Shown in pieces: positions 7,205-41,121 of a DNA stretch of 41,121 nt (positions are counted from its first letter, which is position 1; each line of letters opens with the position of its first letter). The stretch lies in NCBI GenBank assembly GCA_010093815.1, contig ML996585.1; one strand, given 5' to 3'. A model generated the notes under the pieces. The model was not told the origin of the DNA. It made no database searches and saw only the letters and a program-made list of their open reading frames with translations. This stretch comes from Pseudovirgaria hyperparasitica. Its lineage: Eukaryota. Both the position numbers and the translations under genes were made by a program.

Positions 7205-7299
<95 letters not shown>

Positions 7300-10300: not shown

Positions 10301-10839
10301 TCTAGACTAGACTCTAAAAGATACTAAGAAAAGTAGTCTCTTCTTTCTTAATCTCTCTTTCTATATATATTATTTAGTAGTTAATCTTATCTAGAAGAAT
10401 ATCTCTAACTAGAGTTCTCTCTTTATTCTTTATCTATAGTATTTTATACTTTTAATTATTTATTATCTTTTAGATAGAGGTTTAATTATTCTAGAATATT
10501 CTACTATATAGCTATTTCTACTATATTAGTATTAGGGATATACCTAGTAGAAGCTAGAATATATTAATATCTAAGGCCTCTATAGTTATTAGTTAAGGGC
10601 TACTCTTAACTAATAAAAAGAAAGTTAATATATTAGTATTTAGTAGTAGTAGTCTATACTTATATCTCTAAAGAGTTTTTAAGTATATATATTTAGTATC
10701 TCTATATATTAGTAATATTATATTTCATATACTATATATATATTAGAGGTTATTATACTTAGTATACTCTATTAATTAATATATATAAATTACTATATTA
10801 CCCTAGACTAATCTATTTAGTCTCTTAGAGTATAAGAAG
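7345..10839 (-). mobile_element. Tad1-like LINE copy B (5' UTR, ORF1, APE, start of RT; 3' part lost in the gap)
   Basis: Reverse-complement match to copy A and colinear with copy C up to the shared 5' end (...TATAAGAAG versus ...TGTGAGAAG at 21181). Very heavily RIPed. Confidence 0.9.
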
Positions 10840-11440
10840 AATTTAAGATAATTTTATTATATAGATATCTCTATATTATCTAACTATTACTTAGAACTAA
10901 GTAATTCTATAATAGTAACCTTTATATTATATACTTACTTAACTCTATATATCTTAGTAGAGTATATAAAAACTAGTATATAAGAAGGTAGCTATTATAG
11001 AATTTAAATCTATAATATTAGATAATAAATACTTCTAGTAATATAGTATACTACTACTATACTACCTAGCTAATAAGAAGAAGATAATAGTAGTAGAGAT
11101 AGTTTAAGCTATTAATTATATAGAAAAGCTTAAGAAATTAGAGACTTAATTATTATAGACTAGATAGATAGTCTCTAAAAAGGTATATAAGACTTATTTA
11201 TATAAATTCCCTCTATTTTAAGTATATAGTTATTAATATAGATGTTTAGAGTTCTACTTAAATTATATAGTTTATTAGTAGATTGGCTTATTAGTAGATA
11301 TATTAACTTAGTATAAGACTTAAATGAATTATAATTTGCATAGCATTTTAGAGAAACCGGGCCACCCAACTTAATTAGCCTCGTAGCCTAATTAAACTAC
11401 CAAGTGCTCGACTTTAACTACTTAAGCCTTCTCTAACGTT

Positions 11441-12970: not shown

Positions 12971-13089
12971 CCCTGTGCTTTATAAGTGGAGGTTCGTCAT
13001 CGTTATTTGTAAGTTAGGTTTCCACGGTCTATAAGGTAGCTTAGTAATCGTTGGGGGCTTCTATCCTAAACCTACGCTAGCTAGAATAG

Positions 13090-13577
13090 TAAGCTATAGA
13101 ACTATAGTATATAGTAAAGTAGACTAAGAGTATAGATACTCTAATACTACTACTACTAATATCTTCTCTATAATACTAGAAGATAATATATTCTATAAAC
13201 CTAGAGAAAATAAAGATCTTAAATAAGATTATATTCTCTTCTCTAGAACTAGTAGATCTATTAGATATTAATAATATTAAATATCTAGATATAATTAATA
13301 TTCTCTAGAAGGTTACTAAAGAAGATATATTTAATACTATTAAGATACTACTAAATAATAAAGTATCTAGACTAGATAGAATACTAAATAGAGATATTAA
13401 GGATACTATATAAGCTACTCTACTACTTATTAGTTATATATTTTAAATATATATTAAGAATAAATATTATCTCTAAAGCTTCTAAGCTATCTATATTATT
13501 ATATTATTAAAGCTAGAGAAGAATTCTAGGTCTCTAAAAGAATAGAGACTAATTACTTTTCTTTTCTATCTTAGTAA
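13090..13577 (+). mobile_element. Tad1-like LINE fragment D (ORF2 linker and RT start), cut by an LTR insertion
   Basis: Matches copy A ~4110-4595; contains NKVSRLDRI (de-RIP NKAPGLDGI). Confidence 0.85.
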
Positions 13578-13807
13578 TATAAGAAGAGATAGGTATAGAT
13601 ATATATATAATATTCCTTAGATAAGGAATATATACTTAAATAGAGTTATATAATAGAATCTAGCTATAATAGACTATTATATAATAAATAGATTAGTAGA
13701 GTATAGCTTAAAGATAATAAGAATATAGTATAATTCTTAAAGTAAAGACTAGATAGAGAGAGAACTAAATATATAGAGAGACCGCTCCTTATATATTCCT
13801 CCTTATA
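13578..13807 (-). repeat. LTR, copy 1 of 3
   Basis: Near-identical to 22856-23067 and 40893-41121. Confidence 0.9.
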
Positions 13808-15883: not shown

Positions 15884-15900
<17 letters not shown>

Positions 15901-15923
<23 letters not shown>

Positions 15924-18900: not shown

Positions 18901-21181
18901 AGCGAAGGTAAGGTTAAGCGTGGACCCGTCTTTATCCTATTTATATTTTTTCTATATAACTTATTCTATAGGTGTAAGTAGATATAGGAAGTCGTGGTAG
19001 CGGGTACGTAGTTCCCTTACTCTAAGTTCTTCCCTAACTATGGCTAGGCCTCTCTACCATCGGTAGTAGAGGTTAAAGTCTCCTAGGAGGATGTGTTACC
19101 CTGGTTCCATAGTACCCTCGAGTATCTCGTCTAGTATAAGTATACGTTATTAGTTATATATGTTATATATATATAGGGGGCCTATATCTATTTATAGGTG
19201 TAGTATTATCCTAAGGTTATCGCGCTCGGTATACAACCATAATAAGAGTAGTATTAACCTATAAATATAGAAGAGGACTCGTCTTTCTAGTCCTAGAGGG
19301 TATATAGTGTGGTATCCGGGGTGTATGGTTAGTTTACTCGTCTGGTAGTGTTTATAGGGTTCCTAGATAGCGAGTATTATGGCCCCGGTCTCTTCGAGGA
19401 GCGTCACCTAGTTCTCTCTTTTATATTATATATTTACCTATATAATTTAGAGTATATTCTAGTCCCTTATTAGGTACTAGAGAGTATATATACCTATATA
19501 CTTATTCCTTAGAGGCGCGACTATCCTCGCGCGGTAGCGGCTTTAACTATGCCTTTTAGTCATCCTATCGTCTTCGGAATAGTCTACTATCCTACCTAAC
19601 TATCTTCCGGAGGGGAGGTTAGGGGTATTATAAAGGAAGGGCTCGTGGTAGATATTATATTCTATAACTATCTTACGCCTGTCGCTTTTATCGTATAAAT
19701 GTATTCTATAACCTATTTACGTTTTATACACGTTAACGACTATAACGGGTGTTTCCCGTCGTAGTTTAAATACTATACTATATCCCTATTTCTTAGTCTA
19801 TCTCCTCGCGGTTTATAAGGGCACTTCTAGATGGCGTGGTCTCCACGGTACTATCCGCACTTAGTCTTCTATAAGTACCTTTATATAGTATGTCTATACC
19901 CTTAATAGTTAAAGCACTATATTATTACCTATACTCTATTCTATGGCTCGGCCATAAGGAGCTCTCCTTCTATTAGGAATCCCTTCTATATAATATGTTA
20001 TACGAGGGCGGGGTCTCGGAGCTCTATAATTATAGTAGAGTGTTTTTTCGCCGTCGTCTTAATCGCCTATAGGTTCTTCTACCACGCTTTCATAATCTTA
20101 ATCCCTAGGTATTTTCGCGCGTTGGATTATTCTATACGCGTAATATCCTCCGCTCTAATAGCCTATCCCCGCACGGGTACTATATATACTATAATTAGGT
20201 ATATGGCTGCCCTAATAGACGCGCTAGGGAAGATACTACCTATCGCGTTCGGATCTCGCGAGATGTTTTACTATATAGTATTCGTTATAGTAGTAAGTAC
20301 TATCCCACCTAGTATAACTTTAGTAGCCACGACGCTTAACTACATTCCTTTCTATTCGTTAATCTTATTTATAATTTCCTTTAGGGATACCTATTAGACC
20401 TACGCTAGCGTGTTCTTATCCTAGATTATAATACGTATACTATATACTCTATCTATGGTCCTAGTGGTCCTTAGTGCGGTAGCTCCGGGTATTACTATAA
20501 TCTAAGCCCACGTATTAGGGCGCTTACCTTAGGATAGCTCTTCCTAGATTCTCCGTAGGCTAGCTTCCATTCGGTTAAGCCTACTACTAGGTTCCTCTCG
20601 TGGCGACTTCCTTTCTTCCTCCGTGATTCCTCTTAGGTTCTAGATAAGGTCCCGGAATATATAAAGGAGGGTCTTCTTTCCCTTCTCGGCGTCCCTCTCT
20701 ACACGTATTACCTAGTATTTAATTTTATCTAGGAGGGTCTCCCCTCTCGGGGTCCCCTCGGTCTAGGTTATCTATAGCGCTTCGCACCCTTAGTTAGTTC
20801 CTATATTTTAGATAGGTGTCTGGCTGTCCACATTAATGTTACTATATGGCCGTTTCTACCATACTAGTGGGGGTATATCTAGCGTATACCGGGGTGTTAC
20901 GATGCCTAAGGCCGCCATGGTTATTAGTTAAGGGTAGCCCTTAACTAATAAAAGGGGGTCGGCGTATTAGTATTTATTAGATATGGTCTATGCTCGTGTT
21001 ATCGAAGAGTCTTCGAGCGTATATATATAGTATCTCTATACGTCGGTATCATCGCGTATTATACGCTATACGTACGCACGTGTATCGGAGGTTATTATAC
21101 TCGGTGTACTCTATCGTTTAATGTATATAAATCGCTGTTTTACCCCGAATTGACTAGTTTAGTCTATTGGGGTGTGAGAAG
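15901..21181 (-). mobile_element. Full-length Tad1-like LINE copy C (~5.3 kb), the least RIPed copy
   Basis: ORF1 ATG at 20918 with CCHC knuckles (~19700-19916). ORF2 ~19470-16240 has APE (ILAI*EPY, LGDFNL) and RT (NKAPGLDGI, VGYADNIYL); no RNase H recognised. (ATT)n tail at 15901-15924. (TA)n on both flanks is the probable TSD. Confidence 0.95.
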
Positions 21182-21349
21182 TTTTTATATATATATATAT
21201 AGATTAAGGGGGTATATAAGTTTTATATATATAATAACCTTATAATCTATTATATATATAATATATAAGTTATATAGAATAAGAGTCTAGCTCTACTCTA
21301 TTCTATTCTATAGAAGTATATTCTCTAGTATTCTATAGAAGAGTTCTAG

Positions 21350-21480: not shown

Positions 21481-22855
21481 ACTAGACTCTATAACTTCTT
21501 TAGAGACTATAGACTAGAAGAGTTATATTAATATAAGCTAGTACTAGCTTATATTAGATTAAGTAGGAATCGGAAGTATATAGATAGAGATAATATATTA
21601 GTTAATATATTAGTTCTTAGTATACTAAAATAGACTATTATAGATAATTTCGGATATTTATAGAATACTATTAGTATTTAGTATACTATTTAATATATAT
21701 TATCGATTCTTAATAATAACGCACGTAAATTATATATATATAGACCTTTCTATAGCTATAGATAGTCGTCTCTTTAAGCCTTTTAATTAAATATACTTTA
21801 TATACTATATATTATATCCCTTAGTCTTATTCATTCAAGATACCTTCTATACTATCTATTCTTCTAAGGGTATTATATATATCTATTCTATATATACCCT
21901 TTTAACTCTTATAATAATAATATAATAATTCTTTATATACTCTTAGACTTCTTAAAAGAAAGATATATATTTATTTCTACTCTAGTTCTAGAGGTATAGA
22001 CATTCTTCTAGAGTAGAAATAGAGATAACTCTAGAATAGAGATAAGCTAGAGTATAATAATCTCTATATTAGAGATATAGTAATATCTATAATATATATA
22101 GATATATATCTAGAGTATAAGTAGCTCTAGAATAACTATATAGACGTTTCTCTAGAGTAGAACTAGCTCTAGAGTAGAAGTAGACATTTCTCTAGAGTAG
22201 AACTAGCTCTAGAGTAGAGGTAAAATAACGTCTATAGATATATAACCTCTATATTAGAGGTATAATAACGTCTAGAGTAGCGATATAATATCCTCTAAAA
22301 TATAATAGATACTTATTTATCTATTTAATAGATCTATCTTCTCTAGAATACTTTTTATAGAGTTCTTCTAGAGTTTCCCTTTACTCTAGAAGTCTTATAT
22401 AATAGAATATATAAAGTAATAGTATAAACTATTTTTTATATATTATATCTATTATAATAAACTCTATAAAATAGATATTCTCGCTAGCTATAAGTATACT
22501 AGATAATTTTCTAAGGGTTCCAGGGCCTAGAAACTCTAAGTATACTATTCAAATATTATAGAGATAGAATATATCCCTATAATAAATAATAGAGTCCCCT
22601 TTAATATAATAATTAAAAGGTTCCCTTTATATATATATATAGATAGAGGTAAATATATATATATATAAAGGTCTAGAGTATATAGTAGGATAGAAGTTAT
22701 ACCTTAGATACTAGGTAATCTCTATTACTAGAGGCCTAGCTAGTAGGGACTATACGCTAGTAGATCTCTTTCTATTAAGATAACTTAATAGAGGTAAGCC
22801 GTATAATTTATAATAAATAGTTAAATATAAGCTATAAGCCTCTAGGCTTATAACC

Positions 22856-23067
22856 TATAAAAAGGGTAGATATAAATAGATATATAATATTCCTTAGATA
22901 AGGAATATATATCTAAATAGAGTTATATAATAGAATCTAGCTATAATAGACTATTATATAATAAATGGATTAGCGGAGTATAGCTTAAAGATAATAAGAA
23001 TATAGTATAATTCTTAAAGTAAAGACTAGATAGAGAGATAACTAAATATATAGAGAGACCGTTCCTT
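22856..23067 (-). repeat. LTR, copy 2 (5' LTR), truncated at 23067
   Basis: Matches the other copies up to CCGTTCCTT, then switches to CATTAGG instead of ATATATTCCTCCTTATA. Confidence 0.9.
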
Positions 23068-23101
23068 CATTAGGAAAGATACGGCGCTCCTAATGCTTCT
23101 A

Positions 23102-23280
23102 GGTATCCCGGTACTTCTAAAGTTATCCTAAATGGGTCCTAGTACTTCTAGAGTTATCCTAATCCTCCCGGAGTTATCCCGGTCCTTCTAGAGTTGTCCT
23201 AGTTCTTCTAGAGTCGTCCTAGTCCTTCTAGAGTCGTCCTAGTTCTTCTAGAGCTATTCTAGTTCTTTTAGAATTATTCT
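23102..23280. repeat. 20-bp tandem array, ~8-9 copies (GTCGTCCTAGTCCTTCTAGA-like)
   Basis: Direct inspection; head-to-tail units with no spacers. Confidence 0.85.
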
Positions 23281-23304
23281 ATTAAATATTAAGAAAACGT
23301 TTAA

Positions 23305-23615
23305 TTCTATTATATACTAGTATATATAGTAACATTCTACTATATACCGGCGTAGTATAGTAATACTACTTTATATTATAACTATACTTCGAGTATCTAG
23401 GAATATTCTATAATATACCGGTGTATAGTATATTAGAATATCCCGTTATATACCGGTATATATAGTAACGTTCTACTATATACCGGTATATAATTATAAT
23501 ACTACTTTATACTACGACTATACTTTAAGTATCTAGGAATATTCTATAATATACCGGCGTATATCGGAATATTCTATTATATACTAGCATATATAGTAAC
23601 GTTCTACTATATAAT
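23305..23615. repeat. ~130-137-bp tandem repeat, ~2.3 copies, containing TATACCGG sub-repeats
   Basis: The motif TATATAGTAAC(G/A)TTCTACTATATA recurs at ~23322, ~23459 and ~23590. Confidence 0.8.
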
Positions 23616-23761
23616 AGTATAGAATAAATATCTTATTTCTCTTTATATATAGATATATATAGATATATAATTATAAGTAAACAGCGGTTTATATTTATAC
23701 TACTATACTATATAGTCTCTTAGAAGCTAATTAACTAACTACCTTACTTACTTCTATACTA

Positions 23762-26700
23762 CTATATCTCTATAGAATTAAAGTATACGCCTATTACTAG
23801 TATATTAGATATAGCTATCTCTACCGTAGCTATATCTTCTTTTTCTAGGTCTAAGGCTTATATTCTTATACTTTTAATTACCTTATCTAATACGGTAAGT
23901 CTAGCCTTAACCTCTAAATAGTCTAAAATTAAAGTATACGTATATACTATAGGCCGATATTATCTATAGTAATAATATCTTATACTTATCTACGGCCACG
24001 TCTCCTTACGTAAGTATTAGTCTACTAATACTATAAAACTAGTAACTATTAGGTCTTATCCTTTATAGATCTACGAAGCTAATACTAGTAGAATATATAG
24101 AGAATCCAACTTAGTCAATCTAAATAATCTATATACCTTATTTAATTCGGACATACTTAGGCCGGCTAGTAAATATACTAATATTTTCGCTTATATATAT
24201 GGACGTAGTACCTATATATATTAGTAAATTACGTTACTAGTAGATAGTATAAACACTTATTAAGTATAGAAATATTAGGCTTACTAGTATAATATATATA
24301 AGTACGATTTTCTCTAGGTAGTTAGCGGATATTTATTACGCGTGTCTAGTACTTTTATTATAAATATTATTATTAATAAAGTTATAGATCTAGTTTACCT
24401 TCGAAGCGTGTTTATTAGCTAGTAATACTATCTCCTTTTATATAGTCTTATCTAGCTATAGAAGTACTTCGCATACGGGATTAGTAATTATCTTACTTAG
24501 TATACTATTATTACTATCCCTCTAACGCGTAAGCGTAATATTAATTTACTTATCTTCTATCTTTTTATTAGTAAGGTATATAAGTAGTATATATATAGTA
24601 GCTAGCCTAGCCTAGTAGTAGTATACGTTAAGCCTAGACCTAGTACCCCTATTTAATTTACTCTAGGCGGTAGATTATATCTATAAGTCCCGCGGCGTTC
24701 TATTAGACTATAGATTATTAAACTATTTACCTCTATTCTTGTATAACCGTATAATTATCTTCTCTAGTTCTATAGCTAGGATAGATATAAACTCTACTAC
24801 TAGCTTTAATATTATAGATAGATATATCTCTCTATTAAACTATTTAGTTAGTAGTCTCTATTATAGAATAAATAGTAAATACTAATCGGCTACTATACGT
24901 AGTATACGCTTACCTTCTATGGTTTCTAATACTCTATAGACTATTACAGCTATCGTATCTACTAGCTTACCTTTTATTAAACTAAGAAGTTTATTTAACT
25001 ATATTATAATAATCTTTCTTATAGTTTTATTCTATAGGCTCTCGAATACCCTTTTAGTAGTATTATTATTAATATAGTCGGGTAACTTATCCAGAGTATC
25101 TACCTCGATAGCTACTAGAATATCTACTAGACTATTTAAGAGGGGTGTTATACTAACCTATATACTAAATATAAAGGTATTATATATTATATATTTATAC
25201 TATTTTATATTAGGGTTCTTTATAGAATAGAACTTATCTACTATTAATATACCGAGGAATGCTACTTCGCGAGTTTAAGTGTTTTTAGTACTAAATTTTT
25301 TCACCCTCTTTATTCTTATAACCACGTGTTCTATAAAAGATTTAAGATATTAGAGTTCTATACTCTAGATAGTACTATAGATTATATAGTTCTTCGTATA
25401 TTGCGACGGAAATTTAGTAGTAGCGCTTCTATTAATAGAAATCGACTATACTCTAATAATATACTTCTTATTAGTCTTGAATTTAGTAGTATTACTAATA
25501 TTAACGCTATATTCCCATTCGGGGTGTAGGTATCTCTTAGCTAAGTATTATCGGTCTATATACGAGAATTATTAGATACTAGGGGCGTTAGTAAGGGTTT
25601 TTAAGTACGCTAGCTATACTATTATCTTTATTAGATTCTATTTATTAATCTAATTAGTAAATATACTATCCGTATTATTATATATCTATTTAAAGCGCTA
25701 TAGCTAATACGCTATTAGAAGGGACCTTAGATAGTATAGTATAAATAGTCCTTAAAGGCGGGGTATATAGATAAAATTATTAGTCTAGCTACACGGACAT
25801 TTAATCGGATATAGAGATTATATCGGGTACTTTCTATCTATACCCGAGTCTTAAGTCGGTTATAGATAATTTCCTAGATTAAGTTCTATATTATCGCGTA
25901 GAAAGTCCTAATAAAACACGAGGCGGATAAACGTTATAAGCATGATTATCTTCTCTAGCTCTAGACTATCTACTAAGATCTAGTACTTCTATAGACCTAC
26001 CCGCTACTTAAATATAGTAACTACCGCGAGTAACTAGCTAGCCTATAGCCTATATAACCTACTTATACTAAAGGCTAGATATAGAGTAGATATATGGCCG
26101 AACTCCTTTATTAGATCGTCTAGTATAAGTCTAAATATACTTATAGTAAGTAACCGTATCTCTTCCGTATAATAAGAGATAGCTTAGACTACTTTATTAG
26201 AGTTATTAATAGTAAATATTCTATAGATATATTAGTATAGTAGTATATATTCCTACTTACTTCTTAGTATAATTTACGCTTTCTATAGTTTCGTACTAAT
26301 ATTATTATCTACCGGAATTAAGTTCTCTATATCTAGCTTTACTTTATCTCTATTAGAGTTATTATCTATAGAAAGAATTTTAAAGTCAAGGCCGTTTGCT
26401 AATATACTATCTAATATATATCTACTATATAAATTATCTACTAATCTAAATAGTTCCTAGTTTTTACGTGTCTACTAGTCGATATCTAGTAATATAATAT
26501 ATTCTAGTTTTAGACGTTTCGGAGAATTAACTAGGTTTACTATATTATCTAAGAGTATCCTCTTTATTTCTAGTAGCCGTAGATAAGTCTCGCTAGTATC
26601 TAGAGGTATAACGGTATTTATAGGGGAATTATCTATATTAGTAATTATAGCCATATCTATCTTCGATACTACTCTAATGTTAGTATCTAGAACTATATAT

Positions 26701-27278
26701 ATATATATATATCTAAGTATACTAGCTACGTTATCTTCTATTTTAGTATCTTCTATATTCTCTTTCTCTATATATTCTAACGGTAACTATAGCTACGTAT
26801 CTATACCTATAGTATCTTTATCTAGTTTAGCCTCTATTATATCTATAGTTATAACCGTTAGTACTAACTTACCATTTATAGCCGTAATATACTAATTAAA
26901 TTCTCTAGTAACGGTTTCCTTAACTATTCTATAGAGTATAGTAGTATCTATACTACTAGTTTCAAGCTCTATTACTACTTCTTTACTTACTATCTTAATA
27001 ATAGTAGCCCTATATATATTATAACTTATTTCGGGTATTAGGTATAGGTCTTAGAGGTACTAGATATAAGGTAGGAGGGTACTAATACTTAAGGCCTCCG
27101 TACGTTATATATACGTGTTACGGTTAGCTATTCTATAGCTAGTAGTTAAACTAGGATAGTCGTGACTCTTATTATATCTATCTATTTCTATATATAACTT
27201 AGACTATAGGTTGTAAGACGGCGTTAATAGCGATAAGATATAAAAACTAGATTTAGATAGTAGAAGTTAAGTTACTAT
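23762..27278 (-). pseudogene. Divergent SWI2/SNF2-family ATPase (~1130 aa)
   Basis: Motif I LVDSLELEKIIM (de-RIP LADGPGLGKT, ~25975-25941); II VDKFYSIKNP (VDEFH..KNP, 25241-25212); III SITPLLN; LFIL**R; V G*DLIVT; VI *ISIRYYYYR*YR (Q...RCHR.GQ.R). Introns at 26277-26221 and 24260-24212. Confidence 0.85.
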
Positions 27279-27649
27279 GTTTAGTAATTATAATATAATT
27301 TTAATAAGTATAGAGAAAGTAAAGTATATAAGTAAATATTTAATTATTAGAGTAGATCTTATATAATTATAGTTATAGTAATAATATAGCTAGTAGAACC
27401 GGGCGTATCCTAACGTAAACTAGGTAGACGCCGGCTTATACTAGTATTATAATATCTTAACTAAATATATATACTATAGTTATATAGCTAGTAGAATCGG
27501 GTATATACTAATATATAGTAGGTAGAAGCCGTCTTATATCGGATTATATTACCTTAGCCAAGCACGCACGCTACTCTTACTACCTCTAGCACCCTTTTTA
27601 TTATTCTATTAGTCTTTAAAAGCGATATCTATATTCTCTATGTCTAAGG

Positions 27650-28860
27650 TACTTTTAAGGCTTTTAAAGTTACTATCTTTAGAGCTTATAGATTGGTCTT
27701 ACGACTTTCTAGATACTAATAGTAGTATATATAGTATCGCTAGAGGAAGGGTTAAGTCGTTTAGGTAATACTATCTACTATCTATAATACTATCTCTATG
27801 GGTATCTCTACCGTTATAGATAGTAGCTTTCTATTACTATTATTATACTAATTATAGTAAGTATAGTATTAGAGACGGAGGGGCGGATTTATTCGAGCGT
27901 AACCTATATATAGCCGTCTATACTATTATATACTAGTCGCTGGTTTATATTTCGTTTTACTTTAGATATACTATCTATATTCTATCTAAGGCTAAGGAGT
28001 ATTATACTATTACTATATTCTAGGATATATTTAATTACTAACTATAGGAGCCATCTAATATCTACCTCTAGTTCTATTTTACTTATTATATACTTAACTA
28101 CTAGTATAATAGAATACATGGTAGTATAGCTCTAGTTAAGTACCCTCCTAGTCTTTATTACGTATTAGACCCTAATTTACTATATAAATACTACTAAATT
28201 AATACACGAAGCGTTACTATAGTCTTTCTACTAGTTAGATATAGATACTAGTATTTTAAGGAATACGTTATCGTTAAACCTAATCATAAATTTAATTTTT
28301 CTTATAGTATATATATTAGTAGACTATAGAACTACTATAAGTATAGACTATAAGATCGTAGTATACGAGAGCTATAAGGTTATAATAAATAGAGGTTATA
28401 AGATCGTGATAGGCGGAGATTATAAGATTATAATAGATAGGGATTATAAGGTTATAGGATATAGAGCTATAATTACACGCCTCTTCTTATACTTAGAGAT
28501 AGTTTTTCTATAATATATAGTTTTCTATACTATAGTACGTACCTAGTCGTAGATATAGTATAGCGCCTTTATCTCTATATACTCTACTACTCTTTTCTAT
28601 ACTACTAGGAATTCGCCCGCTACCTTATTAATAATCTTATATACTCTTTTTATACCGAGCTCGTTCTTAGTTTAATATCTATAGTCTATAAGTAGAGTAG
28701 CTATATATACTTCTATATATAGCTACCTTATACACGCCTCTATAGCTTTATACTTTACTTATATATCTAGGCTTAAGATACGAAGTAGTACTATAGTAAT
28801 TACTATATTCGGATGGTTACTTTATTATAGAATCGGATTTAATATATTAATCATATATAG
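27650..28860 (-). pseudogene. Unknown protein with a 24-bp S/T/P/Q-rich linker repeat (possible upstream exons to ~29360)
   Basis: A long single frame with only RIP-type stops; 8-aa repeats like SPPITI(S)Q at ~28340-28460. Boundaries are uncertain. Confidence 0.55.
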
Positions 28861-29857
28861 TTAACGTGTATAGTTAATATAGTATTTATAATTTATAGAC
28901 TAATTATATAGTATATACGTAGTATATTATAGGCGTAAGAAAGATAGAGATATAGGTTAGACGATAGAGGTAGAAGCCGTAATAATAAGGCATCTACTAG
29001 GTGAATCTTATTTATATTCTTATTATTCCTTAAACACGCGTTTATAATATATATATAACTTAGCATGGCGTGGTCGGGCGTGTAGTTATTTACTTTATAT
29101 TATCTAATACCCTTAATAGAATTAGATAGCTATAATTCTTATCTTATAATATTATATCGTAGGCGACTACGTCTAGAACGGTATATGGCTATATATATAT
29201 AAGGTACCGTGTTAGTCTTATTCTATTTTATATTTATATACTTATCCCTAGGTACTCTCCGAGTATTATAAGTCTATATTTTATTATATTTAAGTATTAT
29301 ATCTTTCTATACTTTTAAAGTACACGATATTTAGATTTACTATATTCCGTATATATTATAGTTAAAGTCTAAAGGTAGAGACTTTAATTAGGGCGTATAT
29401 TTTTTTATATTTTCTCTTTAGATAGTAATATCTCCTAATATAAAGGCTAGAAGTAGTTTTAAAAGTATAAAGAGAATAACTAAAGGAAGTCTATATTATT
29501 AGGCCGGGGCTTATAATAGATATAGAATTATATTTATTTCTTAATTAGTCGGTACTAGTTAATGTATCTAGTGGCGCTATATTATCTAATAGCGCGTCTA
29601 TACTAGAGTAGACGTAATAGAAATACCCTTAATAGATCTTTAATAGAGCTAAACTATCTATCTAGTAGAATATTATAACTATATCTAAAATAAATATAGA
29701 GGTATACTTACTAAGAAGCCGTAACTAAGTAGCCCTAATATATAAGTCTAATTATATACTATTACTAATTAACTTCTATATCTTTATATATTATAATACC
29801 GCTATCTTAGTTGGTATCCTCGTAGTCTCTATCGTCCTAGCCGCTAGTAGTTACTTT

Positions 29858-29932
29858 ATTAGTAGTATTAGTTCTAGTAGTATTAGTTCTAGTAGTATTA
29901 GCTCTAGTAGTATTAGCTCTAGTAGTATTAAC
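29858..29932. repeat. 15-bp tandem repeat, ~5 copies, coding for the helicase C-terminal tail
   Basis: TAGTAGTATTAG(C/T)TC units; the minus frame reads NTTRA (de-RIP DAAGA-like). Confidence 0.8.
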
Positions 29933-32900
29933 TAGATTATTACCATTTATACGTGCTAGTAATTTAGTATAGCTAGAATAATAACGCCGAGTATAACTAG
30001 TAGTCTTATAATTATAGTAAAACGTACCTATAAGCGTCTTAGGTTTAGGGTAAATATTAGCTTTATAGCTAATATTCTAATAGTTATTATATATATATAT
30101 CGACCCTCTTAGATACTTAATAGACTTATATTCTTTAACGTTATATTTATAGTAGACTAGCGGCTTACGGGGCTTAGTACTATTAGTAGTTTATTAATTA
30201 CTTTATTCTCCCCTCTCTCTAATACTAAGTATAGAGTAACTATATTAGAGATTAGGTATATTAGAGGGTAGAGGGAGGCTATCTAGATCGGGGGTCGTGC
30301 ACGTGTATATCGTATAAATCTTAGAGTACTTATTCTATATCTCGCCAAGTACGCTATCTAGGACTTTCTACCTCTTAAGAGATATAAAGTTAGTAATAAT
30401 AACTATTATCTATTTAGCGCGCGTAATAGTAATAATATTATAGTTTACTTCTAAGAGGAAGCTAAAGCGATTGGTTTAGACCGGGTTAATAAGGACTATA
30501 TCGTTATTATAACCCTAAGAACCGTCCTATAAACGCTATTAGATAAGCTTCTATACTAGCTTAGGTAGAGTATTAAATTAAGCTTTATCCGCTATAGTAA
30601 GTATAGTTAGAAGCGAGTTTCTAACTATCCCTTTAAATAGATTACGTTAGGTAGCGTATATAGAAATATAGAGTACGCGATTAAGTATAATACTATAATA
30701 GAAGAGCTTAGTAATAATCTACTAAGTAAAACGTAATAAGTCTATATTATATATTAAGTTATTTACTATATACACGTAATCCCTATTAACGTTAGTATAT
30801 ATAATATATTAATAGCTATAGATTCTAAATATTTATTAAACGGTCTCTACGAGTAGTATATTAATATTATTTATTATATAGGGCGAGGTCGTTAGCTCGC
30901 CTAAGTAAGTAATTAGTAATATAACGTTTATTATTCTAGGAACTAAGTATTCTAACTCGGTAAGGCAAGTAGTTAGAAAACTATATTATATCTAGCGCTT
31001 TATAAAGGAGATTCTCTAGTTCGCGGTCTATATATTAGTACTATTATACTAGTAGGTATCGAGCTAGTATAGGTCGCTAATATAAATAAATATCGGTTAC
31101 TATTCTATAGTAGTATAATTAACGATAATTCTAAGTATATTACTTTTAAGGATATATATAGCCTCTTCTATTATAACTAAAATTAGATATATATTATAGG
31201 CTACCTTAGCGATATTTATAATATATAGGGTCTCTATATAAATCTAGATATAGATAGTAACTAGGTCCTAGATAGCGAGGTATAGCTCATTTATTCTATT
31301 ATACTTCTTCTTAGATATATCCTTATTATAAGCGTAATATTTATAGATAGTATATAATAGTTAAGCCGTTTCTTTCTCGAAATTCTTAGAGATCCATTTA
31401 TATTAGTATTAAGATTTAATAAGTCTAACGACCTCGAGTATAATATAACTAGTATATAGTTCCTATAGACGAGCACGGAGATCCGTACTATATTCTAATA
31501 GTTATTTACTATAGTCGGCCTAGGCTTACGTAAGGATAGTACCATCTATTATATTATTCTAGGTTAGCCCGATAAGAGGGTCGCCGTAATAAGATAGTCT
31601 AGCTATAGTAAAGAAAACCTCTTAATTAATAGCTTTGGGGCATCTTTAAAGAATAACTAGTATCTTTAGAGACTTATAGTAAGTAAATATATTACTTATA
31701 TATTTATATACTTTTCTTATAGCGTTGTCGTAGGTTTCGTTAGTTAGGCTAATAATAATATATATATATATTCTATATATTTAGATAGAACCTAGTATAG
31801 AAAGGTACGCTATTACATCGCTAGATAGAATAACTACCTTAGTAGTATAAGTAATAATAGAAGTACTATTTATTTCGTTAATTAGAAGTATAGCTAGTAG
31901 TAGATAAAGCTATAAATAGCTCTTACTAGCTCCTCCATAGCCGTGAAGTAGAAACTAAGCCCTAAGTACGTCCGTTATCTATATATATATATACTATTAT
32001 TAGAGAGATAGTTCTAAATATATAATATCCTAGAGATCGTAGAATCTTTTATAATCTTTAATATAGTGGTTATAGTCGATAGATTAAAGATTTAGATAGT
32101 TATTACTAAGTATTAGATTCTATATAGAGGGTAGTAAAGGGAATAGAATACTAGAGTAGACTTTAGATAATATTAGAAGTATATATATATTAGTAACGGG
32201 GCTAGTAATAGAACCTTCGTCGCTAATAATATCGTGACTATATTCTATATTTATATTCTTATTATTATCTAGGGATATAGATAATTTAGAAAGAGTAATA
32301 AGGGTATTCTAAGGCTCCGTACTATAATCTAGAATCTCGTTATTAGAGTTAGAGGACCTATATATTAGAGATATAGATACCGAGTCTACGATAATATTAA
32401 GGACTATTATATTAAATATATTCTAAGCGGCGTGGTTATCTACGCCGCCGTCTCTAGAAGCTTATATAGTATAGTAGGTTAGTTTCTAGTACGTATTAAT
32501 ATATTACTTAGTAAGCTTATTATAGATTTATATACTAACTAAAGCTAGAAGGTTCGTAAACCCTATAAGCGTAGTAAGAGATAACCTAATTATACTTAAA
32601 CTAGTATCGCTAGTCTAAATAAAATGTTTAGGATAAGCTTAAGTTATATTAGTAACCGTATCTATTAATATAATTAGTACCTTAGATACTTTAGAAAGAT
32701 ATCTAACCTTATTAAAGACTTTTAGAGCGAGGCATTTAAATAGAAGAATATCTAGGTAAAATTAAAGGACTTTAAAGCGGTATGTATCGTTATTATAATC
32801 CTTTAAATCTACTTTAAGGTACCTATAACTACCTAGTTCTATATAATAGAATCCTTTTGTATTAATAGAATAGATAATAGCTAAGAGCGCCTAAGTAATA

Positions 32901-33918
32901 TCTAAGAGCTAGATATATCTAATAGTAATATCTTAGAATTAGGATAATAGAAGATCTATCTATTTATCTTATAAGGTACTTATAGTAATATATATTAGAT
33001 AGTCGAATTTCTTATTAAATAACTCGCGGTAGAGAATAGAGATCTAGGGCTAAGTATCCGGCCTACTTAATATACTATATTATATATAGAGAGTAGTAAC
33101 TTCTATATACCATAAATTAATCGGATTACTCTCTAGTTTAAGCTTATTATTAAAGCCGGTAAGATCTATAGAGTTATATAGCGGTAGTAAGATATAAACT
33201 ATAGTATAAGTACCTAGATCTTCGAAGAATTACTTTACTTATTTATATATTATATTAGGTCTAATATATAATAGAATAGTAAAACCTATACTAAGAAGCT
33301 CGCTAGCTATAAGTTTAATAATCTAAAAGTCGTAAGAGTCTTTATAGAGGCTAGTATTAGTATATAGTATATTAGCTTTATCCGCTTCGCTTATAATAAG
33401 ATTAGAAAGTTTAGAAAAATACTTAATAAAGTTATCTACTTACTTAATCTTAAAGATCTATACTATAGAGTAGTTAGATAATAGAAGGATATTAGTATAA
33501 TTAAAGCGGAGTAAGCTTATTAAGAATACTAATTTCTCTTTATTAATCTATTAGAAGCGAGTATATAACTTAATCTAAGAGTAGTACTTAGGGAATTTAA
33601 GGAATCTATATATATAACTAATCGACTCTTTAAAGCCGTAACCTTTACTATAAGCCTTAAATACTACTAGCTTAAGCTTAGCTTAAGTTTTCGCTTATTC
33701 CTACTTAAGTCTATCTATTTCTCTACTAATACTATAGATATTTCTAAAGGTTAACTATAGATTACTCTATATAAGAGAGATCTAATAGATAGTATAAGTA
33801 GAAACGGGAGTCTTACTACTTTAGACCTTCTTAAGTTTATACTTATTATTAGAATAGTAGTTACTAATAAGTATACTAAAGACAAGTAGTTTATTATCGG
33901 TTAAGATAGTAGTTATAT

Positions 33919-34200
33919 TATAAGCTTCGACTTAAGTATAAGACTTAGCTTTAATATAAGGATTAGCTTAAATATAAGGCTTGGCTTAAATATAAGGCTT
34001 AGCTTAAATATAAGGATTAGCTTAAGCGTAAGGTTCGATTTAAATATAAGACTTAGCTTAAACGTAAGGCTCGACTTAAATGTAAGGCTTAACTTAAGTA
34101 TAAGGCTCGGCTTAAATGTAAGGCTTGACTTAAGTATAAGGCTCGACTTAAATATAAGGCTTAACTTAAATATAAGACTCGGCTTAAACGTAAGGCTTAA
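33919..34200. repeat. 18-bp tandem repeat, ~15.5 copies, coding for a hexapeptide at the helicase N-terminus
   Basis: Unit TGTAAGGCTCGACTTAAA-like; the minus frame gives (V/A)EP(Y/H)(I/V)(Q). Confidence 0.92.
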
Positions 34201-34639
34201 TTATATTAAGCGTAGACTAGTTCTAAATATTACTAAATATAACGAGTTCTTAATCTATATTATAAACTATAAATATAACCTCGTTAACTATTATATAGAA
34301 TAGACCTTAAGGGTTAATAGAGTCAAGTTCGACGTAGCGTTTATATATAGTTATAATTAATATAGAATAAAGTATAGAAGGTAAGATTTAGATTTAAAAA
34401 CTAAGATAAGTAGAGAAAAGGTTTATAGAAGTTTTCTTTTATAATATAGAGATAACTAAAGGAAGCTAAGATTAACGTAGGCTAAAGTAATAGTAGCTTA
34501 AGTAGTTTATAAAGTAGGGTAGTATACTACTATTATATAAGTCTAGTAGCTTACTAACTAAGTATATAGTATATTATAGAAGGCTATTAAATTAGAGCTT
34601 AGGTAAATATAGATATAAGTAAATAGTATTATATAAAAG

Positions 34640-35290
34640 TTTAGCCGTCTAATATACTAACGCTATAGATACTAAGTCTATCTTCTAAATTCTATAGTAA
34701 CTATCTCTTCTAGGTAGTAAGATATTACTAGCTATATCTTATCTATTCTATTTATAGTAGAGATACTATATATCCGTTAGTATACTAGCGTACGTATCTA
34801 ACTACCGCTTAAATATAACTTACCTTATACTATAATATATACTATTAAGCTAATATTATACTAATATTTATAGGTTCGTATCTATAAACTTCTCTTCTAT
34901 AATATTAAAACTAGTAATATTATCTAGTAATAGAACTATATAAGAAGAAGGCGGACTTAGTATATCTAGTTATATATAGACTTCTACTATCGCCTTAATA
35001 ACTACTACGCTAGTAGGCGCTTTCTCTCTAGCCCTAAATAGTATATAATATTGGACTTTTATACGTTCGCTCGAACTCTTAAGTATACTAGTATTATATA
35101 TTGATTTATAAGGTAATTAGATTATAATTACTAGTATATTAATATTAATAGGTAGAGTAGACGGGATAGTAGCGCTTAACTCTTCTAATATAACGTTAGC
35201 TAGCTAATAATATAATAGGTAAATATACTAGTCGCGTTATTATTAACGTCTATCGTCTAAGTAGATAAAGCGTTAACTATATCTATATTA
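34640..35290 (-). pseudogene. Unknown small spliced protein
   Basis: Frame with RIP-type stops and a canonical intron at 34823-34766 (GTAAGT...CTAAC...TAG). Ends are approximate. Confidence 0.5.
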
Positions 35291-35534
35291 AGTAGACTAG
35301 GGCGTACCTATATACTATTAATAAAAGATCTAAATCTAGTAAGGTATCCGCTATATATATAACTCTATATATAACTAATAACTAAAAACCTAAGATATAT
35401 AAATAGTATTAGGTCTACGGAAGAGCAATAGTATTATACTAGTATATACTAGATATACTAGTATATATTAGTATACGCCGCTTAGTCGTTATAATATATT
35501 AATATATACTAATATCTATTAGTATATATATATC

Positions 35535-36471
35535 TTAAGCTTATCTACGCGCGCTAGACGGAGGAATTCTACTACTATACTTATAGCGCGACGTTTCTAT
35601 ATAGTTAGATTATAGTTAATATATTATAGTAGGCTTCTAAATATACCGTTTATATCGCCCACGCGGAAAACTACCCGATCTAGTCCTAAGTCTAGTACCT
35701 ATTTAATAGTCTACTATAATACCTAGTCTAAACTATTCTTATAAAGAACTATATTACTTAACTTGCTTAGTAGAATCGGGTATTCTAGATAGACACGACT
35801 ATGCCTATAACCGTCTACGTCCTCTAGTATATCTATAGATAAGCTAATAAATTCTAATAGTTTATTTATACTAAGATCTACTATATTATGTATTTTTATA
35901 CTCTTAATATTTAATAGCGTTATACTATTCTATATAGCTATTATTAGTACTAGAGTAACCCGAGTATAATCATAGATAAGGACTATAGATATACGTATAT
36001 AATACGGCGGCACGGCTACTTTAGAAGATATAGATACTAGTAGTCTAATAGTTAAATAACTAGGTTAGCTAGATATATTAGGCGGGTTTATAGAGTATAT
36101 ATAATATTATAATAGCTTGTCTAGCCCGGGGCATCGTTTTAATATATATAATAGTATTTAGCTAACCGCCGCTAGTTACGTATAAATACTAAGAATATAG
36201 TATTAAGTTAATATATAGTATCTACCTATAAAATAGTATAACTACTATTAATAAATATATATTTATCCGCAACCGTCTGGAGGTAATACTCTCATTTTAT
36301 ATAGTGGTCCTTTACTTCCTTACTACGTAGGTTTAGTAATAGACTAGTAAATTCCTCTTAAATTAACTCTTCTATATATACCCGAAGTTTCTATCTATTA
36401 GACGCTCTAAATATATAAAGTATATTAAGACTCGCTTCTACTTGGCTATTTATTCGCGGCTAGCTAGATAT
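35535..36471 (-). pseudogene. Unknown protein, possible paralog of 27650-28860
   Basis: Coding-like frames with one apparent frameshift in a P/S/Q linker; intron 35646-35597 with CTAAC; C-terminal LD*VL**TIK*VLDLGLDRVVFRVG. Confidence 0.55.
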
Positions 36472-36732
36472 AGCTATAGATAGATAGAATAGAGAATAGA
36501 GTATATTACTAGGGTAATAGAGAGATAATATATATACTCTATATAATAGATGTAGGTATAACACGTATATTACGGCTATATTAACGTAAGTAGTCTATAT
36601 AGTTATTAGTAATAACTCGTTAATTTAATAGAGGCGGGGAAACATATAACTAGTATCCGATTCTATACTAATATAGAGCACGTAAAATAACGACGTTAAA
36701 TATATAATACTCTATACATAATATTAAGTATA

Positions 36733-37243
36733 ATAGATAATAGCCCTACTCTAGTAATACCATCTATATATAATAAAAGAGTAGTATAGTATATAGACAT
36801 GATAGGATAGTAGACCGTCTTTACGACTATATAGATCTACTACTAAAGAGAAATACTATAAGATCTAGTATATACTATTATAAATATACTATTATCTATT
36901 ATATTTAGGTATACTAACTTAGCGTATATAAAATATAGATAACTACTAACCTATTATAGTTCGCTATTATTTAAAGCCTAACGAGTAGAACTAAGGAATA
37001 ATCAGTAGAAATAGTTAGATATAAGAGTTTTTAGTAATTAGAGAATAGTCTAGATAGCTTAAGAGAAGGATAGAGAACCTTCGTAAAGTATATACTTATA
37101 TAATATTAATATATAAATATTTAAGAGAAGTATATAATACTAACTATTATCTCTATAATAGATTATTATTAATTAGTACTATTATTAAGAAGAGATAGAC
37201 GAGCGTAATAATAAATAATTATAGTAGTAAACCCTTATATTAA
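36733..37243 (+). pseudogene. Unknown small two-intron protein, divergent from the rest of the block
   Basis: Introns 36909-36959 and ~37083-37161, each with ACTAAC and TAG; splicing keeps the frame. Confidence 0.45.
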
Positions 37244-37459
37244 ACACGAACAATACAACATATTAGTACAGTATATTTATCTATTATAAGAATATACATC
37301 TAGTTACCATAGTTTCTAACAGTCTATATAAGAATATATATATTAATAATATAGTAATATAAGTCTAACTATACTTATAAGACTAGAGAAAGAATAAAGA
37401 AAGAGAAGAAGAAATATTAGAAGGGGGAGATACTTAAGAAAGACGTTTCCCTAGTAAGA

Positions 37460-37595
37460 GCGTTATATACCCGGTATATACTTATTTATACTTATTTATA
37501 TAGACTCGTTATATACCCGATACTTATTTATTAATAGACTTATTACGTATCTAATACTTACTTAACTATAGACTTATTATATACCCGGTATCTAA
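37460..37595. repeat. 34-bp tandem repeat, ~3.5 copies
   Basis: ATAGACTCGTTATATACCCGATACTTATTTATTA-like units. Confidence 0.75.
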
Positions 37596-37873
37596 TAAGA
37601 TATAAACGCAAATAACGAAAATATTAGAATCGGGTATAAGCTAGGTCTAGTAGACCTAGAGATATAGTTTGGATTTCAGGGTATTAATATATATAATCTA
37701 TCTATATTAGGTTAATACTATCTACGTCTAGTTCTACCTATAAATAAGAATTCTTTAAGTTCTATATACCCCTTTTAGAGGCGTAGAGTTTTTATACTAG
37801 CTAGTAATTATTAGATAATAAGGAGGTGTATCCCTAGATACTCCTTAGCTAAAATTATAGATAGTTATTAAAT

Positions 37874-40800
37874 ATAATAATAATAATAATATTATTATAT
37901 AACTAGGTAGAGTAGTTTACTCTATAGGCGTATACCTCCTCTAGTCTAAGCTATTATATAAGAAAAAACCTTTATATAAGGAAAAACTCCCTTCTCTCTA
38001 TAACTATATCTCGTAAAACCTTTATATTATCTTAAGTATATAGCCGTTAGGAATATCTATAGGTCTATAATCTATAGTACTATTATTTTACCCTTAGATA
38101 GCACGTATAGAGTATAGGGGTTATTAGTTAAGGGTTACCCTTAACTAATAATTAGGGTTCTCCTAGAGTTCTTCCGGCGTATATTAGGGTCTATCTAGTA
38201 TATACCTAGTTCCTTCTAGTATATATATCTAGGTCTATTAGTATTAGGGAAGAGGGAGGTATATAAGTATCTATCGGGCGATCTCCTTAGGGTACTTATT
38301 AAGCTACTATATAATATTAGAGGTCCTTATTATATAGATAAGCGATTATCTCTATATATAGAGGTCCGGGCATATTATAAGATAGTATTATATTATACCT
38401 CTCTAGCTATATACTTTATACTATAGAGATATATCTAGAACGCCCCTCTAGTATAAGTAGTATAGAAGTTCTATAACTTCTATTCGGGCTTAGAGAAGGA
38501 TAGATACTTAGGCTTTTATAAGCCCCTTATATATCTATCTACTTAGTTCCTTCTATAGTCTCTAGATCTATTCTAGATATCTATTCTATTAGAATATCTA
38601 ATAGATCCGGAGGACTTCCTTCTATTTATTCTAGGTCTACGACTATATAGCCCGTATAAGCTTCTAAGGGTTCTACTAGTCTACGGAGATATCCGGGTTA
38701 TCCCCGATCTCCTATATAATTTAGTTTAAGTCTATCTCTATTAGACTCTTATATTATAGTTAAGTCTAGTCTATATATAGTAGTACTTAGTAGTAGATAC
38801 TAACTTATATATATAGCGCGGCGAAGGTATATTCGGCGTGTCCCACGCGTTCCTATACTTATTATTTAGTAAAGTATACTACCCTCTATATCTAGTAGAA
38901 GTCTTATATACTTATTATATTTATCTCGCGCTATAGTAGTACTATATTAGTAGCTTTATATATACTAGATATAAGGCGGAGTATACGGTTCTATATAGAC
39001 TTAAGCTTTATTCGCCTAGCCTACGTAAGGGCTATATACTAGTACTTATATCTATATATAAAGGCGGGTCGTGCTATAGAGACGTATAGCTAGCGCGCCT
39101 TATTCTAGGTGGTTCTCTATATAGAGGCCGTAATCTAGTATATAGCGGCTTCTACCTTAAGGGCCCTAGATACTATATATATAATCTATAGACCCTATTT
39201 AAGTTTATTATTAATTATAACGCTAAGTATATATATACTCTATATTAGTAGTTTAGTAAAAGCATCTATTCTAGAACGTTGCTCTCCTTCCTTAGTAGTC
39301 TATTTCCTATAGTAGTTAATAAAGTATATAAGTTAGTATTTCTTAGGGGCGAACTTTACTCTATGGCGCTTTACCTACTAGATATATCTCTTATAGTCTT
39401 ATTTAAGGCGTTTATAGGTTAAACTAGTATTATTATTAATAGCTAGAAGGTATATATTATTAGCGTATCCTACTACCTCTATATATTATATCCTCTATAG
39501 AAGGTCTATAGTAAAGAAGAGGAAGAGAATTAGAGAGATAGTACTTTCTTATAGAATACCATATATCGTGTTCTTGTATTTACTTTAATATCTAGAGATA
39601 TATATCTAGGTAATTCTTTTGGCGAGGAAGGACTATATAAACTTTATAATTTATTTAAGTATATATCTCTTCTATAGGTTATAGATAAGTCTTATATAGT
39701 TTACCTTATTAAATGCACTAGCTATATTAAGGGAGAGTAGTATTACTATACGTCTCTACTTCTATATAGTCTAGATAACTTTAAGAATATATTAGATAGT
39801 AGTAATTAGGGAGCTCCCGGTCTTCGCCTTCTAGTTCACTAGAAGAAGGTTATATTCTTATACTATAGTACTTATCTTCTTCGCGATTATAGTCTTAAGT
39901 ATCTTACTAAGATAGAAGAGAAGGGTAATTAGTCTCTATCCTTTTAGAGAGTTAGGGTTCTTCTCTAGCTTTAGAAGTATAATAGTATAGATAGTCTAGA
40001 AGCTTTAGGGGTGGTACCTATTCTTAGTATATACCTAGAAGATAAGACTAATAAGTAGTAAGGTTATCTATATAGTATATTTAAGATATCTATTTAGTAT
40101 TCTATCTAGTCTAGGCGCTTTATTATTCGGGAGTGTTTTAATAGTATTAAGTATATCTTCTTCTATAATCTCTACGGGAATATTAACCGCGTCTAGATAT
40201 ATATTATTATTAATATCTAATAGGTCTACTAGCTCTAGAGGGGGAAATATAACTTCTTAGAGGATCTCTATCTTTTCGGGGCTCGTGGTATATATCCTTT
40301 CCTAGTATATTAAGGGAGATATTAGTAGTAGTAGTATCGGTATATCCGCGCTCTTAGCCTACTTTACTATATACTATAGTTCTATGGCCTAGTATATATA
40401 TTTATTAGTAATTATATACTATTATTTATATTATTTATTACGGAGGGTTCTATTATAAGATTAGATTACCTCTTTCTATTTCTTCTATACCTTAGTTATC
40501 TAGATATAGTATACACGTATATATAGTCTCTAGGCTTCCCTTCTACTTTTATATATTTAAGGTATACCCCTTATATCTAGGGGCTTATACGTTTAGTATA
40601 GTATATATTTATCTCTTAAGTTTTAGAAGGCTTAAAGAAGGACTTATACGGCTCTATCTATAGCCGGGCTATTAGATATATTAACTATAGAGGGATCTAG
40701 AATTACTAATTCTAGGTTCTCTCTATACTTCTTCTAGTTAGTATCTTTCTATAGCTATCTCCCCTATTATTTATTAGATATAGATATATCTATTACGGTC

Positions 40801-40892
40801 TCTATATATTCGTAGTTAGAGTCTATCTATATCTTACTAGGGCGGTAATATTATACTCTATAGCTTATATATTCTATAGCGAGGGTAAGGTC
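37874..40892 (-). mobile_element. Tad1-like LINE copy E (tail, 3' UTR, RT, to the end of APE), interrupted by an LTR
   Basis: Colinear with copy C 15901-18910; (TAA)n at 37874-37891. Confidence 0.93.
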
Positions 40893-41121
40893 TGTGAAAA
40901 GGGCAGGTATAAATAGATATATAATATTCCTTATATAAGGAATATATATCTAAATAGAGTTATATAATAGGATCTAGCCGTAATAGACTATTATATAATA
41001 AACGGATCGGCGGAGTATAGCTTAAAGATAATAAGAATATAGTATAATTCTTAAAGTAAAGACTAGATAGAGAGAGAACTAAATACATAGAGAGACCGTT
41101 CCTTATATATTCCTCCTTATA
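40893..41121 (-). repeat. LTR, copy 3 (solo or 3' LTR), inserted in LINE E
   Basis: TGTGAAAAGGGCAGG...TTCCTCCTTATA, 229 bp, matching 13578-13807. Confidence 0.9.

Follow-up and report, generated by a model that had tools for sequence, protein, structure and literature searches.

A multicopy block saturated by repeat-induced point mutation in Pseudovirgaria hyperparasitica, possibly a dead large mobile element with putative helicase and ATPase relics

The window analysed here is the whole stretch of 41,121 nucleotides taken from contig ML996585.1 of Pseudovirgaria hyperparasitica (assembly GCA_010093815.1), and it consists of AT-rich repeat DNA of the fungal type, with a GC content between 0.21 and 0.43. 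Positions 23068–37872 of the window form a block with a GC content of 0.28, which showed no BLAST match to the remainder of the window in a self-comparison. The block is bordered on the left by a repeat that resembles a long terminal repeat (LTR), and on the right by a long interspersed nuclear element (LINE). It is a single copy of a multicopy unit, saturated by repeat-induced point mutation (RIP), and it retains two large relics of open reading frames (ORFs), one with likely UPF1-like helicase motifs and the other with probable SNF2-like ATPase motifs. The unit is considered here as a candidate dead mobile element. The features of the block and its neighbours are as follows, with the evidence in brackets.

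22856–23067, plus strand: LTR-like, high-copy repeat of 230 bp, truncated by 17 bp; left neighbour of the block (self-BLAST, alignment of copies, contigs past 23067).
23068–37872, minus strand: the block; a multicopy unit, 14.8 kb or longer, is present here as a single RIP-mutated copy (RIP indices, flat summed depth, 3–21 contigs per variant site).
23068–23095, no strand assigned: hairpin with an 8-bp inverted repeat at the left edge (−4.8 kcal/mol, z −0.78).
23137–23281, no strand assigned: tandem array of a 20-bp unit, 7.2 copies.
23304–23627, no strand assigned: tandem array of a 136-bp unit, 2.4 copies, with five palindromic cores ATACCGG(T/C)(A/G)T.
24000–25500, minus strand: probable SNF2-like ATPase relic, motif II at 25247 and motif III at 25157, codon starts at 41120−3i (periodicity, motif score, CHD1L alignment, motif chain).
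26250–27320, minus strand: upstream part of the frame of the SNF2-like relic; 26532–26813 matches the proteins P0001 and P0002 (periodicity, phmmer).
27900–28800, no strand assigned: short segment with periodicity, containing a 24/48-bp tandem repeat at 28337–28472 (periodicity).
29400–34350, minus strand: ORF relic of about 1650 codons with putative UPF1-like superfamily 1 (SF1) motifs and tandem arrays at 29860–29930 and 33919–34199 (periodicity, motif chain).
34351–37463, no strand assigned: aperiodic stretch in which no coding signal was recognised; its depth equals that of the other parts of the block (depth, Pfam, periodicity).
About 37464–37591, no strand assigned: tandem array of a 34-bp unit, three copies, carrying three related palindromic cores TATATACCCGGTAT.
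About 37873–40891, minus strand: non-LTR retrotransposon (LINE), whose 3' microsatellite tail adjoins the block; right neighbour of the block (RVT_1 in a sister copy).

The RIP indices over 23068–37855 were 1.63 for TpA/ApT and 0.10 for (CpA+TpG)/(ApC+GpT), and both were even along the block. In a RIP-mutated repeat the first index is high and the second low, with thresholds of about 0.89 and 1.03, respectively. CpA and TpG were reduced to 0.11 and 0.09 of expectation, and RIP in the block is saturated, in agreement with an earlier reading of this DNA made from the letters alone (the sequence-only reading). All of the 192 stops in the counted frames were TAA or TAG (170 in the three parts of the ORF relics and 22 in the aperiodic gap), while only four CAA, CAG or TGG codons survived in these frames. 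The stops are therefore of the RIP type as had been noted, but they are not distinctive of gene frames, because TGA is rare in every frame. Stop density was 4.2–7.3 per 100 codons in the relic frames, as compared with 9.7–11.8 block-wide.

Copy number was examined using two public sequencing runs (X1 and X2) of one study, which possibly derive from the window's own sample and do not provide independent evidence of wider occurrence. Contigs were placed on 22000–39000 at a likeness of at least 80%, and 13,693 of 592,746 contigs from X1 and 6,895 of 180,325 from X2 were obtained. Each listed variant in the block was carried by 3–21 distinct contigs from the two runs. Transitions made up 1,283 of the 1,342 variant places in X1 (96%), and at 898 of the transition places the window has A or T where other copies retain G or C. 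The summed depth in X1 was 12,324–33,500 across all 26 bins of the block, versus 88,267–167,095 in both flanks. Summed depth is no copy number; relative to single diverged contigs, with a depth of 211–310, it would correspond to about 50–65 copy equivalents, and only an order of tens is claimed for the copy number. An exhaustive phmmer search of 1.84 billion proteins with the X-read minus frame of 24303–27320 returned two matches only, P0001 (KAF2756930.1) and P0002 (KAF2752909.1), which are hypothetical proteins of P. hyperparasitica encoded on different contigs, of 1.57 Mb and 284 kb. They showed 58–61% identity to the block over residues 170–263 (window positions 26532–26813), and the differences include W-to-stop, H-to-Y and A-to-T. 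A repeat of about 42 residues is present three times in P0001 and about twice in 26532–26813 of the window, and its number varies between the family copies. Pfam gave only sub-threshold rows for the two proteins, an atlas query with P0001 yielded nothing of use, a homologue search among shorter-length proteins with the block frame gave P0001 only, and two RIP-degenerate pattern scans of metagenome contigs gave no match. These results indicate that the block is or was multicopy, as the sequence-only reading had proposed, and that it behaves as a single unit with an even copy number. Since no bin drops to single-copy depth, the block holds no unique cargo, contrary to the cargo-bearing element that had been suggested.

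Some contigs joined distant points of the window. One contig from X2, with a depth of 1,712, joined 22042 to 28702 with 23 other letters between, linking an array of the left flank to the interior of the block, seemingly in several copies. Two contigs that share their left point joined 23981 to 29673 and to 36144, leaving out 5.7 kb and 12.2 kb, respectively; their shorter sides were 21–23 letters, no microhomology was seen, and they could be internal-deletion derivatives. Another contig joined 38044 to 24671, connecting a 3' LINE fragment with the block interior, and points to a block copy with the same LINE family inside its SNF2-like relic. A LINE fragment within other block copies fits an old element.

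Coding relics were mapped by the three-base periodicity of purines, which RIP cannot remove because it leaves the purine/pyrimidine pattern unaffected. The regions 24000–25500 and 26250–27150, which an aperiodic gap separates, were periodic in one phase, in a minus frame. The region 29400–34350 was periodic in a single phase over about 1650 codons, including its two in-frame tandem arrays, and 27900–28800 gave a short periodic segment that contains the 24/48-bp tandem repeat. No periodicity was found at 23068–24000, 25500–26250, 27150–27900, 28800–29400 or 34350–37872 (6.6 kb in all). The periodicity supports two large relics of coding sequence and, in addition, a short segment that bears a repeat, rather than the six genes counted previously. 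The gene that had been described as divergent corresponds to the short segment at 27900–28800.

The two large relics were then read by a RIP-aware method, in which the likelihood of the ancestral residue was calculated for each codon under CpA-specific RIP. When checked on P0001, the method gave 253 half-bits, against 40 (standard deviation (sd) 4) for shuffled sequences. Motif sets were fixed beforehand, not taken from a library, and were searched as chains with spacing limits and compared with 30 codon shuffles. The UPF1 chain scored 46.6 bits in minus frame 2 with six of six motifs positive, while the other five frames scored 5.2–14.7 bits and the shuffles gave a mean of 13.1, an sd of 5.4 and a maximum of 27.5 bits. 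Motifs I, Ia, II, III, V and VI were located at 31948, 31834, 31177, 31090, 30532 and 30445, respectively, ordered and in one frame. The strand of the long ORF was undecided from composition alone (log-likelihood ratio plus or minus 7 bits), and it was settled as minus by the UPF1 chain. Single-motif scans were noisy, and five of the six motifs lay outside the six best hits at the places used by the chain. The spacing between motifs I and II was 257 codons, which we take to fit UPF1-like and not Pif1-like helicases, and the preference for UPF1-like over another SF1 family comes from this spacing alone. A UPF1-like helicase core of the SF1B type is likely in 29400–34350. It occupies the second half of the relic, and about 800 codons of unrecognised sequence, including a hexapeptide array of 15 units, precede it. 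Host UPF1/NAM7-like helicases (SF1B, AAA_11/AAA_12) have the same six ordered motifs and long spacer between motifs I and II; the relic differs from them in being multicopy and RIP-dead, in its unrecognised upstream codons and in having no profile match. The absence of an AAA_11/AAA_12 match in the long ORF (0 Pfam families) has to be read with the little power of HMMER here, which detected RVT_1 only in the LINE copy with a GC content of 0.40. A phmmer search of PDB with the long ORF on either strand gave 0 matches, and no homologue was found among proteins of near length (words from the first 500 residues only) or, with the helicase core, among shorter proteins. The AlphaFold2 model of the X-read core had a mean predicted local distance difference test score of 35.6 and was unusable. 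The helicase named in the sequence-only reading is thus supported by the motif chain, but not by Pfam, PDB or protein searches.

An SF1 helicase core behind unrecognised codons in the same ORF brings to mind the Helitrons, which pair an HUH Rep domain with a Pif1-like SF1 helicase. The block would then be a large rolling-circle element of the Helitron type, with the 1650-codon ORF as a Rep-helicase fusion and 23068–23095 as the 3' terminal hairpin. The helicase lies in the C-terminal half of the long ORF, the block is multicopy, and the gene-sense strand has the hairpin at its 3' end, all of which agree with this idea. However, the spacing between motifs I and II is UPF1-like and not Pif1-like, no Rep was recognised, and the block has a further, SNF2-like ORF. 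It also lacks TC...CTRR termini: the 3' end of its minus strand is ...CCTAATG with A as the next base, where a Helitron inserted between A and T would have CTRR and then T. The hairpin, with which the block had been said to open, does have an 8-bp stem, but it is not above chance, since 42 of 200 shuffles folded equally well. We consider a Helitron origin quite improbable.

In the other large relic, the SNF2 chain scored 24.8 bits in minus frame 1, while the other five frames scored 0.6–12.8 bits and the 30 shuffles gave a mean of 8.7, an sd of 5.5 and a maximum of 21.8 bits. Motif II (DExH..KN) reached 18.5 bits, the best hit over six frames, and motif III (TGTP.QN) reached 7.5 bits. Motif I (Walker A) scored 5.3 bits and motif Ia −1.1 bits, and the neighbouring 25500–26250 has no periodicity. 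A phmmer search of PDB with this relic gave five matches at E up to 10, of which three were human CHD1L (best E 0.43), and the CHD1L alignment was gapless over 45 residues from DExH..KN through TP..N. Pyrrolysyl-tRNA ligase accounted for 14 of the 17 weak rows in PDB phmmer (the other three were CHD1L) and was taken as chance. A RIP-aware Smith-Waterman comparison with E. coli RapA gave no signal (43.5–50.5, shuffles 47, sd 5). No SNF2-rel_dom or Helicase_C was found (0 Pfam families), and the exhaustive phmmer search returned no SNF2 protein. The relic shares with SNF2 ATPases the block from DExH...IKN to TP..N, and it differs from them in a weak motif I, in the absence of detected C-lobe motifs and in having no Pfam match. 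An SNF2-like ATPase relic, as had been claimed, is probable but unproven, with motifs II and III as its support.

The left edge of the block is defined by the 230-bp LTR-like repeat, of which self-BLAST found three copies in the window, at 13578–13807, 22856–23067 and 40897–41121. All three agree up to ...GACCGTTCCTT, after which the first and third add 17 bases, while the second switches at 23067/23068 to unrelated sequence. Contigs from other copies of the repeat have the same 17 bases past 23067 and then diverge from the first window copy, so that the end of the repeat lies after those 17 bases. The left break is therefore placed where it had been proposed, 17 bp short of the repeat end, but the LTR nature of the repeat is putative, and we keep the label LTR-like.

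At the right edge, around 37873, the 3' microsatellite tail of the LINE starts. Self-BLAST found four copies of one LINE in the window, at 1–7233 (inverted), 7109–10866, 15885–21204 and 37856–40891. RVT_1 was detected on the minus strand of the copy at 15885–21300 (E 2.8e-16; GC 0.40), and every copy has an (ATA)n microsatellite at its plus-strand start; the LINE therefore runs on the minus strand with its 3' tail at the low-coordinate end. LINEs insert with their 3' end intact, and thus the right edge may be a LINE insertion into or beside the block and not the end of the block. The adjoining tail could also indicate capture by reverse transcriptase, as would fit an endogenised virus-like sequence that was amplified later, its source being, for instance, a long virus with an RNA or DNA genome and helicase domains of SF1 and SF2. 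The length of 14.8 kb and the presence of two relics of helicase type, both on the same strand, are compatible with such an origin. Yet the block is not spanned by one long frame (6.6 kb of it is aperiodic), the SNF2-type block of motifs II and III is cellular in type, tens of copies would be unusual for such insertions, and no viral match was obtained in phage tblastn or in protein libraries. This origin is, in our view, highly improbable.

A Starship, one of the captain elements of Pezizomycotina, had also been suggested. The block would then be a small or truncated one, whose tyrosine-recombinase (DUF3435) captain would be too mutated to be recognised or lie beyond the LINE at the right edge. 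In its favour, the block is a large multi-gene unit in a genome of the filamentous ascomycete type, the fungus bears RIP, and Starships can be RIP-degraded. In addition, a weak open stretch on the minus strand at 36019–35719 (2 stops per 100 codons) would occupy the place of the first gene if the right edge were the 5' end; this stretch has no purine periodicity. The elements tabulated in PMC9156397, however, are 75–195 kb long with 0–5 copies, whereas the block is about 15 kb with tens of copies. Starship features given in that source are a captain in first position, target-site duplications (TSDs) and often terminal inverted repeats (TIRs). None of these was seen in the block, where a captain is undetectable at this level of RIP, and the even and high depth leaves no low-copy cargo. 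A Pfam search for DUF3435, which has no power under this RIP, gave 0 families in the minus frames of 33900–37900 and 23001–28000, with most plus frames excluded. The Starship suggestion was not upheld, and we regard it as quite unlikely to be correct.

Tandem arrays lie near both ends of the block, as had been observed before, at 23137–23281 and 23304–23627 on the left and at about 37464–37591 on the right, where the three 34-bp units span 37488–37586. Others are internal, at 28337–28472, 29860–29930 and 33919–34199. A palindromic core, ATACC(C)GGTAT, is found in the arrays 236–560 bp inside the left edge and 283–409 bp inside the right edge, and seven of the nine matches to the core pattern in the window fall in these two near-end arrays. 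The core-bearing arrays are candidate protein-binding repeats, and their placement is suggestive of genuine ends close to the two edges.

Repeat blocks that combine a helicase with tandem arrays occur also at fungal chromosome ends, in yeast Y' elements and around fungal TLH genes. With this precedent, the block could be a non-mobile duplication, segmental or of the subtelomere type, in which helicase and ATPase genes of the host were carried along; it would have spread by recombination among chromosome regions and then been hit by RIP. It shares with the subtelomeric blocks its multicopy state, a helicase ORF and tandem arrays; tens of copies are close to the number of chromosome ends, and no transposition protein, TIR or TSD was found. 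Against this, telomere repeats in the window were not above chance (nine matches with up to two mismatches, equalled in 14 of 100 shuffles), the block is sharp-edged between the LTR-like repeat and the LINE, and the palindromic array core is common to both ends. Moreover, the helicases of the known subtelomeric blocks are of the RecQ type or otherwise belong to SF2, and UPF1-like ones are not known there. A duplication of this type is an unlikely explanation.

The most economical explanation is a mobile element, because tens of dispersed copies with sharp edges lie beside other transposons. The block is a dead copy from a family of large repeats, 14.8 kb or more in length, and we hold with middling confidence that this family spread as a mobile DNA element. 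The element would end near 23068 and 37873. Its own protein would bind the ATACC(C)GGTAT core arrays, and the helicase and the ATPase would act in replicating or transposing it. The catalytic protein that moved it may have acted in trans; otherwise it may have been encoded either by the aperiodic 3.5 kb or by the unrecognised N-terminal half of the long ORF. This copy would have been inserted into, or become joined to, the LTR-like repeat, and a LINE would have been inserted later at or near the right end of the block. RIP would have mutated every copy of the family.

Several observations weigh against a mobile element. No transposase, recombinase, Rep or reverse transcriptase was recognised in the block, and none is detectable at such a level of RIP. 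The LINE tail sets the right edge, so the unit may extend past the window; in this respect the 14.8-kb element of the sequence-only reading stands as a multicopy, RIP-hit unit with a sharp left break, but with an unproven right end. The missing 17 bp of the LTR-like repeat were looked for at the right edge and were not found, and no TSD is readable, as the right flank is hidden by the LINE. The 800-bp ends share no TIR or wider likeness (81 in a transition-tolerant alignment, shuffles 78.7, sd 13.2). A 13-base core common to two AT-rich arrays has a rough p of 0.01–0.03 and is only suggestive. The C-lobe motifs IV–VI of SNF2 scored −1.6, −5.8 and 2.0 bits, and the UPF1 and SNF2 motifs behind the chain scores did not come from a library. 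Finally, standard searches (Pfam, PDB and protein) do not detect a helicase or an ATPase in the block; Pfam gave 0 families in 11 X-read block frames (minus 33001–33899 was excluded, as were the plus frames except one over 24301–27201).

The proposed mobile element can also be compared with other fungal DNA transposons. AcademH and KolobokH have a DDE-type transposase, TIRs and a TSD of 9–10 bp, whereas neither transposase nor TIR was seen in the RIP-saturated block. PMC10799480 lists Helitron, AcademH and KolobokH as the transposons of fungi that bear a helicase, with domains of the DEAD, Helicase_C or PIF1 kind, and describes none of them with a UPF1-like and SNF2-like pair. According to that source, AcademH and KolobokH resemble the proposed element in being fungal DNA transposons with a helicase beside the transposase, but their helicases are of the DEAD and Helicase_C type, in place of a UPF1-like SF1 core and an SNF2-like relic. 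AcademH is described there as low-copy, as against tens of copies for the block. A pair of UPF1-like and SNF2-like proteins in a mobile-element family was not found in the literature, supplements excluded. It is conceivable, but doubtful, that the block represents a family, or even a superfamily, of large DNA elements in fungi that is as yet undescribed and has no captain, no Rep and no known kind of DDE transposase. Such elements would be moved by a long protein in which an unrecognised N-terminal catalytic part is fused to a UPF1-like helicase, with help from an SNF2-type ATPase, and the ACC(C)GGT arrays near their ends would be their recognition sites.

Other parts of the window gave additional observations. 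The LTR-like repeat at 40897 sits inside the right-hand LINE copy, at a point equal to 18914 of the sister copy, and an inverted LINE fragment at 13086–13581 is followed by the same LTR-like repeat. An N run at about 7290–7340, probably an assembly gap, adjoins the long (ATT)n/(ATA)n microsatellite in which the inverted LINE copy ends. The tandem arrays at 22003–22513, left of the LTR-like repeat, were covered by single contigs with a depth of about 10,900 in X2 and only 3–9 differences; this repeat is very abundant and little diverged, in contrast to the RIP-scattered block. On the plus strand, about 11300–12900 (X-read frame from 10868) looks like a less mutated ordinary protein, with a fungal phosphotransferase-type likeness by eye only and no Pfam family at E up to 0.1. 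Rfam, tRNA and telomere-repeat checks gave no finds.

As it stands, the block is a dead copy, a further large repeat in a region that is rich in AT and heavily marked by RIP. The practical result is that purine periodicity together with RIP-aware motif chaining recovers coding relics which are invisible to HMMER. If the block is a transposon, its combination of a UPF1-like helicase fused to an unrecognised domain with an SNF2-like ATPase matches no mobile-element family that we found, and a live relative would merit a search in the Dothideomycetes.

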